Below, in pieces: positions 4,180-54,138 of a stretch of 55,185 nt of DNA. The translations under genes and the position numbers were made by a program. Numbering within the stretch: the stretch's first letter is position 1; every line of letters starts with the position of its first letter. The notes beneath the pieces were generated by a model, which ran no database searches, was not told the origin of the DNA, and saw only the letters and a list, made by a program, of their open reading frames with translations. The stretch comes from Parcubacteria group bacterium Greene1014_15 (lineage in GTDB: Bacteria; Patescibacteriota; Minisyncoccia; Phycocordibacterales; VMGT01). The DNA lies in NCBI GenBank assembly GCA_007376725.1, contig VMGT01000001.1, positions 1-55,185 of the forward strand, written 5' to 3'.

Positions 4180-5025
4180 TCATTTTCCCCAATAGACGCT
4201 CTCCGGTGTTTGGTACTCTAATGATTGGTGTCTGCGCTTTGTATTGTAGAAAGAGAAGTACTCGGTCAGACCTGCGCGTGCTTCTTCGATACCCCGATAC
4301 GATTTGAGATACACATTCTCACGCTTCACGGTTCTCCACAATCGTTCGGTGAAAATATTGTCCATGCACCTGCCTCTGCCGTCCATGCTGATAGCGATAT
4401 CCTTCGCCATAAGAATGCTGGTGTAGTCTCTGTCGGTGAACTGAACGCCCTGGTCGCTGTTATGTATTTCCGGCGTAGCGATCGTCAGCGCTTGGTTAAG
4501 TGCCGCACGGCAGAAGTCTGTTTCCATCGAGAGAGAAAGCTCCCAAGACAAGACGAACCGTGAAAACCAGTCGAGAAGCGCTACAAGGTACGCCCATCCT
4601 TCTTCGAGTTTCACGTAGGTAATATCCGTACCCCAGACGTGATTTGGATGAACAACAGCAAGGTTTTTCAAGAGGTATGGATATTTTTTGTGTTCTTTAT
4701 GGGCAGTGCTCGTCTTTGGCTTTGGATAGATGGCTTCTATGCCCATCTCTCGCATAAGCCGCTGGACATGTTCGCGACAGAGGGCGACTTCGTACCGATC
4801 GAAGAGTTCAAGTCGCATTCTCCGTGATCCGTAAAAAGGATAGTCGGTGTAGATCGCGTCGATCATGTCCATGTGCTTTTTGTCTTTTGTCTTCTCTCGT
4901 TCCGTGTAGTAGAGGCTGCTGCGGGAAATAGCAAGAAGTTCAGTTTGTCGCGCGATGGAAAGGTCGGGGTGTTCTGGAGTGATGAGCGCCTTCCGTTTCT
5001 CATGACTCAAGGTGCAATTTTTTTT
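4180..5025 (-). CDS. IS3-family transposase OrfB (DDE/rve integrase domain); frame open from the A9 tract
   Basis: DDE motifs are VWGTDITY, NSDQGVQFT and TERLWRTVKRE, plus YNTKRRHQSL. The track starts it at TTG 5010. The frame is open up to the TGA at 5028-5026, immediately 5' of the A9 run. Confidence 0.9.
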   Translation of the reverse strand, partial: KKNCTLSHEKRKALITPEHPDLSIARQTELLAISRSSLYYTEREKTKDKKHMDMIDAIYTDYPFYGSRRMRLELFDRYEVALCREHVQRLMREMGIEAIYPKPKTSTAHKEHKKYPYLLKNLAVVHPNHVWGTDITYVKLEEGWAYLVALLDWFSRFVLSWELSLSMETDFCRAALNQALTIATPEIHNSDQGVQFTDRDYTSILMAKDIAISMDGRGRCMDNIFTERLWRTVKRENVYLKSYRGIEEARAGLTEYFSFYNTKRRHQSLEYQTPESVYWGK

Positions 5026-5281
5026 TCAACCAGTCGAGCTCGGTGTCTCGCTGTCCAATAATTTTGTAGAGCCGATCAACGAGGGCGCTCTGTTCCGACT
5101 CCCTTTCTTTTCGCTCGCCAGAGAAAACGAGATGTGCATTTTCAACAAGCTGCTTTTTCCAGATACCAACCTGTACGGGATGCGCTTCGTACTCGCTCCC
5201 GATCTGATTGATCGTTTTTACTCCTTTAACCGCTTCGAGAGCAATCGTTGCTTTAAGCTTTGGCGGAATGATCTTTTTCAT
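5000..5281 (-). CDS. IS3-family transposase OrfA (HTH, Transposase_8-like)
   Basis: 93 aa. MKKIIPPKLKATIALEAVKG...INQIGSEYEAHPVQVGIWKKQL plus a C-terminal leucine-zipper-like region. It overlaps orfB. Confidence 0.85.
   Translation of the reverse strand: MKKIIPPKLKATIALEAVKGVKTINQIGSEYEAHPVQVGIWKKQLVENAHLVFSGERKERESEQSALVDRLYKIIGQRDTELDWLKKKLHLES
5018..5026 (-). promoter_or_regulatory. A9 homopolymer (T9 on the plus strand) at the orfA/orfB overlap: candidate recoding or transcriptional-slippage site
   Basis: orfA reads TTG AAA AAA AAA TTG. The orfB frame reads TGA AAA AAA AAT TGC, i.e. it opens exactly at the tract. Confidence 0.55.
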
Positions 5282-5407: not shown

Positions 5408-5593
5408 TAGACCTGTCCTCAAATAGGATTTCATGACAAAATGTTCAGATTTTTAGCCCGGTAGGTGATTTTACTAAATCGCGAGACGAGGTCAAAAAAT
5501 GCGAAGAATATCAAGATATTTCAAGCAATTTTTGACGAGTCGCAGTAAAAATCTAGACACTTTTGGCAGAAAGGTTATTTGAAGACAGGTCTA
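5408..5593. repeat. Long-hairpin MITE-like element A, a divergent member of the family at 14458/49459/54041
   Basis: The 47-nt arms 5408-5454 and 5547-5593 are imperfect reverse complements; the first 18 nt are TAGACCTGTC(C/T)TCAAATA. The interior is also self-complementary (GCGAGACGAGGTCAAAAAATGC with GCAATTTTTGACGAGTCGC). It shares ACCTGTCC and GACA(C/T)TTTTGGCAGA strings with copies C and D. Confidence 0.7.
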
Positions 5594-13427: not shown

Positions 13428-14453
13428 TCACCTTATGAGCATGGAAAGCCCAATTTTCTGCATATACCTTTTCCAGCCCCCATACACAATAACGTGGTAA
13501 AGCTTAAGGTATGGCAGGAAAAACTGCGCTCGAAAGAACAGGACATCGCCTTTCAATTTTTTCATATCTCTCCGCAAAACTTCCGGTCGTGTTTTCCTTA
13601 CCACGAAGCGCATGTGATGCATACTCATTCCCCGTTCTTTCTGTCTTTTGAGAACAGAGACTTTTTTATGTTCATCAACATCCATATATACAATTTCAAA
13701 TCCGACAGACTGTATCATCAGTGTAAGCGTTTCCGGCGTAAACATATAGGGATGATCTATTTGCACACTGCTGTAAATCGCCCCTGCGCGGCGGCATTGT
13801 TGACGAAAATTCTTTACAGCTAAAATGATCGTTCCGCCCATTGCAAGATGATCATGCGACCACACAAGAAATCCGCGCGGATCAAGAAGGTGATTAAAGG
13901 TCTGCACGCAAAACACCGTCGAGAGCGAGTTGATTTTGTCGTTTCTAAAATTCTCAAAGAGTGTGTTGTATGTTTCGATTCCTTGCGAGTTCGCGTACGC
14001 AGCATCTGCCGAGGACGGCTCTATGCCAACAACAGAAACTCCCCGTATAGTATCTTTGACTCCAGCAAGCAGGCCGCCGTAAGAAGAACCAACATCTAAA
14101 ATAACTCCCTTGCAAATCCATTTTCGAAAGTCTTCCGCAAGCGCTCTGCCAAACTGGTAGGCATTTTCAAACCCTCTTCCCGCAGGATCAGCATACTTTG
14201 GAGAAGTTTTGCCTTTCGTTCTCAATCGTTCCTCATGGTAGTACGTTTTATAATACCGATCATACTCAGTGCGTGTCATACGAGGATTAATAAAAATGAG
14301 TCCGCAATTTTTGCACATGCACGTCTGCACATTCATTCCGCTTGAAATCTTTCGCGCAAGAACATACAACGAATCTGCGCCGCAAAGATTGCAGGAAATT
14401 TCTTCACATACCGCTGTCTCATATTGAAACCTGCTCTTCTCAGAATGTTCCAT
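13428..14453 (-). CDS. Class I SAM-dependent methyltransferase with an N-terminal Cys4 zinc-ribbon
   Basis: CNLCGA...CKNCG zinc ribbon. Motif I is VILDVGSSYGGLL. The layout is Methyltransf_23-like. Confidence 0.8.
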   Translation of the reverse strand: MEHSEKSRFQYETAVCEEISCNLCGADSLYVLARKISSGMNVQTCMCKNCGLIFINPRMTRTEYDRYYKTYYHEERLRTKGKTSPKYADPAGRGFENAYQFGRALAEDFRKWICKGVILDVGSSYGGLLAGVKDTIRGVSVVGIEPSSADAAYANSQGIETYNTLFENFRNDKINSLSTVFCVQTFNHLLDPRGFLVWSHDHLAMGGTIILAVKNFRQQCRRAGAIYSSVQIDHPYMFTPETLTLMIQSVGFEIVYMDVDEHKKVSVLKRQKERGMSMHHMRFVVRKTRPEVLRRDMKKLKGDVLFFRAQFFLPYLKLYHVIVYGGWKRYMQKIGLSMLIR

Positions 14454-14457
14454 ATTA

Positions 14458-14526
14458 GAGCATATCCATTATCTAACGCCTCGGCGAAATGTTCAAAATT
14501 CGTTGCGGTTAAATAGTGGATAGGCC
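14458..14526. repeat. MITE-like element B (miniature copy) filling the intergenic spacer
   Basis: Termini are TATCCATTATCTAA and TTAAATAGTGGATA (14/16 complementary). The interior CGCCTCGGCGAAATGTTCAAAATTCGTTGCGG aligns at about 39/51 (by eye) with the left half of copy C. It occupies essentially the whole 74-bp gap between 14453 and 14528. Confidence 0.8.
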
Positions 14527-14527
14527 A

Positions 14528-15601
14528 TTACATACAGGCAACAGAGACACGTTCTTGAATAACGATTCTCCTCTCGGCTGTCATGCAGTTATTAAGTATA
14601 TTCATTCTTCCTGAATCGAGCTCAAAAAGAGGCGCTTTTCCCTCTGGAACATCGTTTGCATCCATGCGCCCCAATAAAAGCGGAGATTGGAGTGAAGTAT
14701 TACATGCACGCTCCATCGTAAAGCCAAATTTGAAACCCTCGTCTTCGGCAACAGCGGCACACAATTGCGACACAAGATCCGGAGCCCCAAAGGGGTACGA
14801 AATGCCCTGTATTTCGTGCGCATCACTGCCTGCAATAGCTGCAACAACATCGCGTGTTTTTGTAATTTCCATACGAAGCATAGCATCATCAAGAGATGCC
14901 ATCGGCACATGAGAATATCCATGAACCCCGAGGCTTTCCAAATGTAACAATTCTCGAAGACCCTCTCTTGGAATATACATTTGCTCACAAAATACCGCTT
15001 CATTTGGGACTAGCGCGTTGAACATTCGATTGATAATCGCATCACGAATGGTTATCGGCAATGAGCTTTTATTTAATAAAAACTTGAGTCGCGCTTCATC
15101 AATGTCATCATACAAATACTGCGATCGAATCAACGCATCTGAAACACCAAGCGAATCTAAAGAGAAAATGCTACCCGTCAAATAGAGATATTCTTCCGCA
15201 ATGATGCTTAAAAACTTTTTTGGCGAAAGTTGCGCGCGACACCAATGTATTTTGTGCACTGACAAAACACGGCGTTCCTCATAAGGCAATCCAGACACAA
15301 AAAAAATCGCAGGTATGCCATGCTTCCTTAAAAGAGGGAGCGCAAGATCATATTGACCTCGAAACCCGTCATCGAATGTCATAATTGCCGCGTATTTCGG
15401 CAAAAATTTTTCTCCGGAAAGCACAGCAAGCATCTCTCGCTGTCCGACGAAAGTAAAAACGGATTGCAAGGCCTTTATTTGGCGCTCTAATCGCTCAATT
15501 GAAACAGGATATATCCCCTGCGCGTAGGTATCTTCGTTGCCTATATAATGATAATTGATCGCGAGAAGCATACTACATTGAAATGATTGGGTATTTGGCA
15601 T
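14528..15601 (-). CDS. Polysaccharide deacetylase (NodB-homology) family protein
   Basis: MTFDDGFRGQYDLALPLLRKHGIPAIFFV and a later HGYSH histidine motif. Confidence 0.82.
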   Translation of the reverse strand: MPNTQSFQCSMLLAINYHYIGNEDTYAQGIYPVSIERLERQIKALQSVFTFVGQREMLAVLSGEKFLPKYAAIMTFDDGFRGQYDLALPLLRKHGIPAIFFVSGLPYEERRVLSVHKIHWCRAQLSPKKFLSIIAEEYLYLTGSIFSLDSLGVSDALIRSQYLYDDIDEARLKFLLNKSSLPITIRDAIINRMFNALVPNEAVFCEQMYIPREGLRELLHLESLGVHGYSHVPMASLDDAMLRMEITKTRDVVAAIAGSDAHEIQGISYPFGAPDLVSQLCAAVAEDEGFKFGFTMERACNTSLQSPLLLGRMDANDVPEGKAPLFELDSGRMNILNNCMTAERRIVIQERVSVACM

Positions 15602-30396: not shown

Positions 30397-30559
30397 CTAG
30401 TACTCTGTTAATTTAATTTTCAGCCCTACAATTCCTAAATTTCGGCTGCAAATGGAGTTTCAGTCGTCATTGAATCTGGATTCAATTCCTTCCTCATCCT
30501 CCATTTTCGCTCAATTTAGGAAGTCTAGTGGACCGAAAATTAAATTAACAGAGTACTAG
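30397..30559. repeat. 163-bp palindromic element E with perfect 25-bp terminal inverted repeats
   Basis: CTAGTACTCTGTTAATTTAATTTTC (30397-30421) is the exact reverse complement of 30535-30559. The interior is also self-complementary (TTCCTAAATT/AATTTAGGAA, GCAAATGGAG/CTCCATTTTCGC, central TGAATCTGGATTCA). The right arm overlaps the asnB-like stop codon (30556-30558). Confidence 0.85.
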
Positions 30560-49431: not shown

Positions 49432-49458
49432 GGTTGCGTAAGATGAGATGATAATTTA

Positions 49459-49639
49459 GAACCTGTCCACTATCTAATGCCGTAGCGAAATGATCAAAAT
49501 TCGTTGTGAAAATTGCGTATTTTGAGGAAGTATGAGGGGAAACTGACGAGAAAGACGCAATTTGCAACAGAATTTTGGTCATTTCGGTAGGCAAGCTCTA
49601 TTTTGTTTCATATTTTGCGGTTAGATAGTGGATAGGTTC
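49459..49639. repeat. MITE-like element C (longest copy) filling the intergenic spacer
   Basis: Termini are GAACCTGTCCACTATCTAA (49459-49477) and TTAGATAGTGGATAGGTTC (49621-49639), complementary at 18/19. The sub-terminal arms TGCCGTAGCGAAATGATCAAAATTCGTTGTGAAAATTGCG and CGCAATTTGCAACAGAATTTTGGTCATTTCGGTAGGCA are also complementary. It ends 1 nt before the stop codon of 49640-50962. Confidence 0.88.
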
Positions 49640-50962
49640 TTAGAGAGTGTTTGCGCGCAAGAACGAGCATACCAGTGCATAGAGTCTCTCGCTCGCATGA
49701 CCATCATAGCCAGAGACGAGTGTATCTCGAATTTTCTGCCTTCCCGTTCGATCTTGTGATACGTCATGGATATAACGCTCAATACCAAATTTGAGCTCCA
49801 TGGGAGTTCTTGCAATATATATTCCTCCACTCCTAAGGAGCGGCTGTAAATGATTGAATTGAAGAGTCCACTCCAGTCCTCCAAAACCAACCGTTATTGT
49901 CGGCCGATCACAAAGCGTCGCATCACAAAAAAGTGATGTCGACACTGATATCACCACAGAACTATAATAAAGCGTATCAATAAGATGGTCGTCATCTTCA
50001 ATACACAATTCGTTTTTCTTAATTTTTTTCATATCAGAATCGAACACCATGCCAGGCTGATCAAAGAGTACCTTACGGGCATGGCGCAATCCCCCAAGAT
50101 ACACAGTGTCCGCAATTGGAAGCCGAACTAGAAGTTCGTGTGTCGCAGGAATCATTTCTGCCAAGGAGTTGATCATGTTTTGATCAAATGTGTTTGTTGT
50201 ATTCTTAAAATGACGATCACCCTGTGCGGCATAGAGAATAATTTTTTTTGAGGAGTCGCCACCGATCGAAGCAATAAACTCACTCCATGAATGTTTTGGG
50301 CCATTGACATATCGATCATGGTGAGGTATACCGATCGGTCTCACGTCTTCCTCGCGCATACCATGTAAATCAACCGCCTCTTTTTTCATCATTTCATTTT
50401 GCACGACAAGTATGTTCGGCCGTACGCGCAGTGGTCCTTTCGTTGTCAAATTATCCCATGAACGCACTATACCAATAATCGGTATGTTTCGAAATCGAGC
50501 TTCATGCATCAATCGATTGTCTGTCGCGCTGAAAACATCAGAAGCGAGCAAGAGCGACGGAGCATATAGTTCAAACACGTCAGCGTACGTTCGGCGCGGC
50601 ACAAGATACGCATACAAAAATGGAATAAACCTTTGTATAATGGGCGCCCAGAAAAGGAGCTTTTGCGACCACAAACGCTCGATGCCGATATTGTGAGATC
50701 GCATAATGCCAAGAGATTTCGTTCGCATAGAAGCAAATGCTAAATCCTTAAGAAACGCGTCTATGTGGCGCAATCGACCTGGAACTCCATGTACAATGAC
50801 ATTTTTCCCTCCAAATGATGTTTCATAAAATGGAACTTTTCCTTCGGGCACAACAACAACAACGCGGATATCTCCTGCTTCTGTCAGCAATTTTAGAAAT
50901 GGCGCCACAAGAATATTTCGCGCAGTAAAATTGTGAAAACTTGTAATAAGAATTGTTTTCAT
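49640..50962 (-). CDS. Uncharacterised GT-B/TagF-like family protein, paralog 5 of 5
   Basis: 440 aa. MKTILITSFHNF, IVRSWDNLTTKGPLRV, LVVQN, IGIPHHDRY, LVRLPIAD, SSVVISVSTSLFCDATLCDRPTITVGF, DGHASERL. It is closest to paralog 2. Confidence 0.8.
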   Translation of the reverse strand: MKTILITSFHNFTARNILVAPFLKLLTEAGDIRVVVVVPEGKVPFYETSFGGKNVIVHGVPGRLRHIDAFLKDLAFASMRTKSLGIMRSHNIGIERLWSQKLLFWAPIIQRFIPFLYAYLVPRRTYADVFELYAPSLLLASDVFSATDNRLMHEARFRNIPIIGIVRSWDNLTTKGPLRVRPNILVVQNEMMKKEAVDLHGMREEDVRPIGIPHHDRYVNGPKHSWSEFIASIGGDSSKKIILYAAQGDRHFKNTTNTFDQNMINSLAEMIPATHELLVRLPIADTVYLGGLRHARKVLFDQPGMVFDSDMKKIKKNELCIEDDDHLIDTLYYSSVVISVSTSLFCDATLCDRPTITVGFGGLEWTLQFNHLQPLLRSGGIYIARTPMELKFGIERYIHDVSQDRTGRQKIRDTLVSGYDGHASERLYALVCSFLRANTL

Positions 50963-53888: not shown

Positions 53889-53908
53889 ATATTTTCATTA
53901 TTTGCACG

Positions 53909-53992
53909 AGTAACTCCTCACACTCTTCGGAAAATCCGCCCCATATCCCTCCATTGCAAAAGGATGGGGGATTTGAGGTGTGAGGAGTTACT
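53909..53992. other. 84-nt hairpin in the pemK-like 5' leader
   Basis: AGTAACTCCTCACAC (53909-53923) is the exact reverse complement of GTGTGAGGAGTTACT (53978-53992). There is inner pairing of AAATCCGCCCCAT with ATGGGGGATTT. It is flanked by the direct repeat TTGCACGA. On the minus strand it contains a possible 18-codon ORF (53954-53898, MEGYGADFPKSVRSYSCK). Confidence 0.6.
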
Positions 53993-54040
53993 TGCACGAT
54001 ATTTGACATACTAGCACAAAAGTGCTAAACATAAAAGCAG

Positions 54041-54138
54041 GAGCCTATCCACTATCTAATGCCTAGACGAATTTTGGACATTTTGGCAGACAAGCTATCT
54101 TTTGCTTCATATTTTGCGGTTAGATAGTGGATAGGCTC
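54041..54138. repeat. MITE-like element D (internally deleted copy of C)
   Basis: Perfect 19-bp terminal inverted repeats GAGCCTATCCACTATCTAA (54041-54059) and TTAGATAGTGGATAGGCTC (54120-54138). The interior GAATTTTGGACATTTTGGCAGACAAGCTATCTTTTGCTTCATATTTTGCGG is nearly colinear with the right half of copy C. Confidence 0.88.

Follow-up and report, generated by a model that had tools for sequence, protein, structure and literature searches.

The palindromic repeat that we observed in three copies (B, C and D) in the window, by which we mean the whole analysed stretch of 55,185 nt, is very probably a non-autonomous MITE that was derived from an IS1031/IS427-like DDE transposase of the IS5 family and is mobilised by it in trans. 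The repeat forms a family with terminal inverted repeats and target-site duplications; it is present in multiple copies at intergenic locations, includes deletion derivatives, has a conserved hairpin and is related in its ends to a clade of insertion sequences (ISs). Its trans-mobilisation by an IS5-family transposase is the step that we infer. The original prediction, made from this DNA alone, had described a MITE-like, non-autonomous mobile family favouring intergenic sites, and this description is supported by the further copies, the TWA duplications, the near-identical copies, the IS clade and the lack of a match in Rfam. The copies in the window are as follows.

Copy C, 49459..49639, plus strand (the 'top' orientation of the family model): full-length MITE, 181 bp, a single long imperfect hairpin
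Left terminal inverted repeat of C, 49459..49477, plus strand: GAACCTGTCCACTATCTAA
Right terminal inverted repeat of C, 49621..49639, plus strand: TTAGATAGTGGATAGGTTC
Left target-site duplication of C, 49456..49458, unstranded: TTA
Right target-site duplication of C, 49640..49642, minus strand: TTA, doubling as the TAA stop codon of the glycerophosphotransferase-like gene
Copy B, 14458..14527, plus strand: 70 bp, internally deleted, retaining model positions 1-50 and the right terminus
Left target-site duplication of B, 14455..14457, unstranded: TTA, 1 nt off the ATG of the methyltransferase gene (14453-14451)
Right target-site duplication of B, 14528..14530, minus strand: TTA, doubling as the TAA stop codon of the polysaccharide-deacetylase gene (14528-15601, minus strand)
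Copy D, 54041..54138, plus strand: 98 bp, internally deleted, retaining model positions 1-31 and 110-183

All three copies lie where they had been placed originally, apart from the right end of B, which is at 14527 and not at 14526. Copy C matched a 183-position family profile over the whole of the profile (nhmmer, E-value 1.9e-48) and showed 74-90% identity to copies at other loci; a profile of 35 full copies recovered B, C and D in the window, and in the loci it recovered copies that are partial or interrupted. The family has 19-bp terminal inverted repeats, which read GAGCCTATCCACTATCTAA. For the terminal 16-mer TTAGATAGTGGATAGG six matches with ≤3 mismatches were found in the window versus 0.25 expected, and none of 100 shuffles reached six.

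The likeness of B to the left half of C, which had been judged by eye, was 82% over 51 nt according to a repeat finder, and D was collinear with the right half of C (88% over 75 nt); in a three-way alignment both appear as C without internal blocks. The inverted repeats of D are perfect over 19 bp, as had been stated. Outside the window, paired termini were almost always 176-185 bp apart, which is the modal length of the family, in agreement with the earlier view that B and D derive by deletion from an element with a long hairpin; other internally deleted forms are one of 113 bp and one of 43 bp with 'two ends only' (locus L095). The deletion junction of B is at a TTGCG microhomology, its right terminus having decayed to GGCCA, and that of D, read directly from the sequence, is at the short direct repeat GAA; both junctions fit slippage across the hairpin. 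A full element of about 180 bp, nearly all of it self-complementary, would have given rise to B and D through internal deletions, with short direct repeats recombining across the hairpin. The RNA fold of C is one long hairpin (dG -63.5 kcal/mol, z = -10.9), while the folds of B and D have z values of -3.2 to -3.5 and -6.9 / -7.6, respectively.

The window carries a large gene cluster for surface polysaccharide and nonulosonic acid, with most genes on the minus strand; the cluster includes genes for glycosyltransferases, NeuB, a cytidylyltransferase, UDP-GlcNAc 2-epimerase, aminotransferases, a Wzy-like protein and MurB. A scan for tRNA and tmRNA found none. Copy B is located between the polysaccharide deacetylase and methyltransferase genes, and copy C between the glycerophosphotransferase-like gene upstream of it (440 aa; 49640-50962, minus strand) and an epimerase gene; both are inside a co-directional gene string. 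Copy D is in a divergent intergenic spacer, upstream of a MazF-like gene. B and C had been described as elements that fill an entire spacer and end 1 nt from a stop codon. What we observed instead is that the 3-bp duplication TTA is itself the TAA stop codon at both copies, and that 24 nt plus the left TTA separate C from the next start codon. In both cases the element would have landed in the stop codon itself, with the duplication restoring the stop. Removal of B with one TTA leaves TAA-T-ATG, a gene junction of 1 nt.

The pre-insertion arrangement of the deacetylase stop and the methyltransferase start (window 14451-14530) was probably translationally coupled; the two genes are now separated by a hairpin of 70 nt, and the sole Shine-Dalgarno-like bases upstream of the methyltransferase ATG (GGAT) are supplied by the inverted repeat of B.

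To find copies elsewhere, we scanned one genome per species (185,579 species) and metagenome contigs for exact matches to the 19-mer TTAGATAGTGGATAGGYTC. In all, 12 contigs belonging to about 10 GTDB-representative MAGs carry the repeat, as do 86 metagenome contigs, so that the further copies for which the original prediction had proposed to search number more than 100 in other genomes and metagenomes. One of the carriers is the MAG 'Parcubacteria group bacterium Greene0416_79' (VMES). The carrier MAGs named by lineage, a taxonomy that depends on the binning of short contigs, all belong to CPR (Vogelbacteria, Nomurabacteria, Taylorbacteria, Parcubacteria, Peregrinibacteria and Saccharibacteria), with two more labelled just 'bacterium'; their GC content ranges from 39 to 53%. 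The copies are dispersed over about 100 contigs at non-homologous sites with unrelated flanks, and they can be dense: three in the 55 kb of the window and six in about 30 kb of one contig. Many metagenome matches lie no more than about 150 nt from a contig end, with contigs breaking inside the repeat, as is expected of a repeat that breaks assemblies. The 19-bp inverted repeats are nearly invariant across 36 copies and the terminal helix is 99% paired; no ORF is conserved in the family and indels are frequent.

As the copies are 74-90% identical across MAGs that differ widely in GC content and lineage, exchange of DNA between CPR bacteria is indicated, and we infer that the element has spread horizontally among CPR lineages. 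Searches of plasmid and phage collections (blastn, distant mode) gave no match. Two viral contigs share a solo 22-nt string without the element; we treated this as chance or a relic and did not count them as carriers. At L004:250-669 a remnant of the right end of the MITE adjoins a tRNA gene, and after this tRNA gene come duplicates of its 3′ end; the pattern suggests that another mobile element has its integration site there.

A direct 3-bp duplication was present in 38 of 48 non-redundant full copies, with TTA/TTA being the commonest pair (22 copies) and TAA/TAA accounting for 16. In the remaining copies the flanking triplets were either inverted (3/48) or different, mostly by one base (7/48). 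As the triplet is direct rather than inverted, it represents a target-site duplication and not a part of the inverted repeat. The flanking duplications that had been proposed as a check of mobility are thus of TWA type and are seen at B and C; D, flanked by CAG and TAA, has no matching duplication and, together with the 7/48 other copies of this kind, speaks against the MITE reading. REP/RAYT and IS200/IS605-derived elements lack terminal inverted repeats of the MITE kind, make no target-site duplication, carry sub-terminal hairpins and depend on an HUH nuclease. One could think of such a palindrome, moved as single-stranded DNA, because the family is hairpin-rich and intergenic and its hairpin is asymmetric between strands; still, 19-bp inverted repeats with a direct TWA duplication are the rule here and the termini look like IS5-family ends. 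We give this origin hardly any credence, and membership in either group is ruled out by the inverted repeats and the duplications.

Copies are intergenic and often occupy a spacer up to a few bases from the next gene. The gene arrangement around them was co-directional in 22 cases, convergent in 5 and divergent in 3; with respect to co-directional flanking genes, 11 copies had the same orientation and 11 the opposite one. We considered stop-codon targeting as a rule and rejected it: only for 7 of 49 copies was the site the stop codon that ends an ORF of ≥80 codons, against a background of 4.5% of all TAA triplets. Stop codons are therefore one kind of tolerated TWA site rather than a specific target.

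Empty-site polymorphism had also been proposed as a check. Exact-protein look-ups with the flanking genes (in these look-ups the window matched GCA_007375765.1, contig VMEX01000001.1, at 99.95-100%) revealed no empty site at B, C or D: every same-organism contig from other samples carries the insertion or breaks inside it, with contig ends falling within B and within the inverted repeat of C. The joined flanks of 72 elements, compared with all loci, likewise gave no empty site; the hits were only to other repeat families adjoining the elements. Locus L037, considered as an orthologous occupied site of B, has genes of the same sizes but was rejected, its flanking proteins being unrelated. At window 54917/54918, inside a DUF4916 gene, the window lacks 79 nt that two related contigs (L118, L119) contain, and the ORF is thereby cut from 207 to 164 aa; this gap reflects either an indel polymorphism or a difference between assemblies.

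A subfamily of 161 bp has 17-nt termini as in the window family and an unrelated body. Its copies are:

161-bp subfamily copy, L072:967-1127
161-bp subfamily copy, L072:12346-12506
161-bp subfamily copy, L056:13328-13488
161-bp subfamily copy, L032:10387-10546

Three copies of this subfamily occupy different sites of one 74.7-kb contig, are 98.8-100% identical and are each flanked by TAA/TAA. Judging from sequence, such near-identical copies at different sites point to recent transposition and are the best evidence here for recent activity. In another subfamily, of L003 type, the loop motifs described below have been lost. At L007:318-547 (also in L013, L019, L032, L062 and L078, and similarly in L026) an insert of ~50 nt forming a double hairpin makes a 230-bp subfamily; it is placed in the conserved GGCAAGC motif of the MITE, with a GCTTGCC duplication on its flanks, and is possibly itself a mobile element of even smaller size.

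The origin of the transposase was addressed by a search of all loci for elements of 600-3500 bp. None with the MITE termini turned up, but among elements with inverted repeats starting with G and with TWA duplications the search revealed, at L050, an insertion sequence of 907 bp that has perfect inverted repeats GAGCCCACCGAATAACCC and is flanked by a TTA duplication; the single transposase of 266 aa has DUF4096 and DDE_Tnp_1 domains and matches NF033580 (IS5 family) with E-value 3.8e-58. Homologues of this transposase are very numerous in metagenomes, with 7,925 at E-value ≤1e-20, mostly on contigs of ~1 kb; those fetched were elements of 888-898 bp with ends GAGCCCATCAACTAACCCC, GAGCCCATCCAATAACCC, GAACCCATCAACTAACCC and GAGCCCGTTGAATAACCC, most of them flanked by TAA/TAA. 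Members of the clade, all assigned to NCBIfam NF033580, are:

IS clade member, L050:8012-8918
IS clade member, L104:527-1423
IS clade member, L105:512-1409
IS clade member, L107:157-1044

The clade is characterized by a length of 888-907 bp, one DDE transposase of 263-271 aa, ends GAGCCC...TAACCC and, mostly, matching TWA duplications. These ISs occur in the same host group as the MITE, and the MITE terminus GAGCCTATCCACTATC, anchored at the tip, is identical in 13 of 16 positions to the IS ends GAGCCCATCCAATAAC and GAGCCCATCAACTAAC; the alternation of GAG and GAA is common to the ends of both. A variant MITE terminus in L083 (GAGCCTGTTCAAGATC) has 12/16 identities to the GAGCCCGTTGAATAAC type. 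Thus, of the transposase with matching ends that the original prediction had suggested looking for, a related IS5-family clade was found and the exact partner was not: among about 120 loci no insertion sequence had the exact MITE termini, with 13/16 being the closest, and the L050 transposase in a tblastn search against all loci and the window matched itself alone. The remark that the IS3 element of the window (orfAB, 4180-5281) is not the partner of the repeat was right. Alignment of the MITE arms with the IS ends gave no convincing homology past the inverted repeat; as its interior cannot be aligned, the MITE did not arise simply by internal deletion from any of the ISs recovered here.

Elements of the IS1031 group are characterized by one ORF and by a target of 3 nt, and IS1237 duplicates TAA (PMC2516522). 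The CPR ISs, with one ORF, a length of ~900 bp and a 3-nt target of TAA type, have the features given for elements of the IS1031 group and similar to IS1237 (PMC2516522). The MITE shares with IS1031/IS427-like elements (e.g. IS1237 and ISLxx6), as with the CPR clade, the 3-bp duplication of a TNA/TWA target (TAA/TTA) and the GAG/GAA ends; it differs from the IS1031/IS427-like elements in having no transposase, in being 181 bp long instead of about 900 bp and in an interior that does not align. At the level of sequence comparison the assignment of the MITE to the IS5 family, through the related CPR clade, is well supported.

The combination of an IS5-family IS with TWA duplications and ends identical in 13/16 positions characterizes the repeat as a Tourist-like MITE of this family. 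Tourist MITEs of the PIF-Harbinger superfamily are eukaryotic, related to IS5, small and non-coding, with inverted repeats, a TWA duplication, fold-back structure and subfamilies sharing the same termini. The family described here is like them in these features, by which, and not by sequence, the two are likened; its host is bacterial. Under the IS5-family reading the transposase would recognise the 19-bp terminal inverted repeats GA(G/A)CCTATCCACTATCTAA and insert the element at a TWA trinucleotide, and repair of the staggered cut would duplicate the triplet. Surviving copies would accumulate in the intergenic spacers, which are very short in CPR genomes, because TAA serves as target and as stop codon alike and because insertions within genes would be selected against.

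Among bacterial elements, Correia of Neisseria and ERIC/IRU of enterobacteria are likewise intergenic inverted-repeat elements of 100-200 bp with full and internally deleted forms, and ERIC is, like this family, an imperfect palindrome over its entire length. They duplicate TA, whereas the duplication here is TWA (3 bp); with no sequence match and hosts from other phyla than CPR, membership in these families is ruled out. Chunjie, a MITE found in Geobacter uraniireducens, has variants of 178-235 bp, conserved inverted and direct repeats and a mainly intergenic location, with one copy inside an operon (PMC10969869). It is similar to our family in size and in the operon copy; it differs in sequence and host, and the insertions here are exactly in stop codons regenerated by the duplication.

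The interior of the element is conserved as well. In an alignment of 36 distinct full copies the consensus is one long hairpin made of the inverted-repeat stem, an asymmetric bulge of ~35 nt in the right arm (GGCAAGC...TTGCGG) and three further stems. We observed compensatory double changes in 29 of the 58 pairs; the fraction of paired cells was 97.3%, versus 89.6% in shuffles and 31-45% with the partners slid, and none of 500 shuffles reached the alignment in any of five pairing measures. These covariation results indicate that conservation of the potential to fold back extends from the termini to the interior. Since a DDE transposase requires just the termini, covariation along the whole body is not explained by transposition alone. 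In quasi-palindromes, compensatory changes can arise without selection by template-switch correction, a known mutational process. The conserved body could be read in two ways, as selection on a single-stranded form or as non-selective template-switch correction of a quasi-palindrome.

Copies B and C, being in a co-directional gene string with likely read-through transcription, can reasonably be taken as co-transcribed with their operon, and together with the conservation of the long hairpin this raises the question of whether the element is primarily a functional cis-acting RNA, cut by RNase III or RNase E or serving in mRNA stabilisation or attenuation, with mobility being secondary. Precedents are Correia (NEMIS) and ERIC/IRU, which are co-transcribed as RNA hairpins and for which processing by RNase III / RNase E has been demonstrated (PMC10969869). 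We consider such a primary role improbable, as the orientation of copies relative to co-directional genes is even, copies are present in convergent and divergent spacers too, and the mRNA of the genes flanking B and C would hold the less stable bottom strand. Furthermore, template-switch correction may have produced the compensatory changes without selection, and terminator-like signals were not found: a scan for promoters and terminators gave one weak hybrid promoter-like site (9/12), no terminator and no U-tract. An Rfam hit, which the original prediction had said would reclassify the element as a known RNA, was not obtained either; Rfam 15 gave no matches for the whole window at gathering thresholds, and in permissive E-value mode the best sub-threshold match of the element was to a miRNA model (E-value 0.1).

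The two strands of the hairpin are not equivalent. In the top orientation, G.T mismatches in the stems (82 cells in 30 pairs) are far more numerous than A.C mismatches (14 cells in 13 pairs), and the top-strand fold is more stable than the bottom-strand one in 35 of 36 copies, by 13.3 kcal/mol on average. The loop motifs GAGGAAG / CTGACGA are common to the MITE and to an element of the window with different termini:

Related but distinct palindromic element, 30397..30559, minus strand: core 30429-30511 homologous to the family core (E-value 7.6e-5)

This element has 30-nt arms that are 93% complementary, termini of its own (CTAGTACTCTGTTAATT...) and core motifs GAGGAAG / TGACGA as in the MITE; one core module appears to ride on different ends. 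One could speculate that a small structured RNA gene borne by the element, or a strand-specific single-stranded DNA intermediate, arises from the top strand and is preserved by selection, and the strand bias, the conserved bulge and the shared loop motifs speak for such a form. This is very improbable, considering that 40 of the 82 G.T cells trace to two ancestral positions inherited by descent, that the element has no convincing internal promoter or terminator and no Rfam family, and that the L003-type subfamily lacks the loop motifs. The more general proposition, that one single-stranded form (a structured RNA borne by the MITE or a strand-specific DNA intermediate) is under selection in an element that spread horizontally across several CPR phyla, draws on the compensatory changes, the more stable top strand and the core common to a different-ended element; we hold it to be rather unlikely. 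As half of the G.T cells are ancestral, the orientation is 11:11 and the less stable strand is in the mRNA, we do not regard an RNA function as supported; an RNA role of the element is possible but unsupported.

Several other palindromic sequences were observed in the window. A MITE-like element at 5408-5593, directly adjoining the IS3 orfAB, has 48-nt arms that are 75% complementary, ends GACCTGTCC... and TA on its flanks; its ends and an arm motif (AAAATGTTCAGATTT) are weakly like those of the MITE family, and no relatives of it were found among the fetched loci. A third repeat family, at 1091-1297, has a perfect 19-nt inverted repeat GCGAGCTTCGTAAAAATCG with the arms 169 nt apart; stretches 80-84% similar to it are present at L039:2768-2890 and L018:3360-3429, in the two loci that carry the MITE copies closest to copy C. 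Just 3′ of murB, at 1723-1807, there is a 34-nt inverted repeat CGTCATTGCGAGGGCGGAGCCCGAAGCAATCTAG, 97% complementary and with a loop of 17 nt, for which no relatives were found among the fetched loci. Finally, an imperfect hairpin of about 90 nt (~53902-54000), with outer arms TTGCACGAGTAACTCCTCACAC / GTGTGAGGAGTTACT..., is located between the start of the MazF-like gene and copy D.

We found no mention of MITEs in CPR/Patescibacteria in the open literature searched, including a 2024 review of prokaryotic MITEs. The element is of an ordinary kind, an IS5-family MITE, apparently not yet described in CPR bacteria, and the points of modest note are its breadth across CPR lineages, the intra-operon insertions in stop codons and the conservation of the body hairpin. 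Its effect on short-read assemblies, in which contigs end inside the inverted repeat, matters for the closing and binning of CPR genomes. Genomes of CPR/Patescibacteria are small and compact and are usually described as poor in mobile DNA; yet a window of 55 kb contains three copies of the family along with several other palindromic elements, and a related contig contains six copies in about 30 kb. The stop-codon insertions in packed operons would represent a case of a TWA-targeting element colonising a genome with almost no intergenic space.
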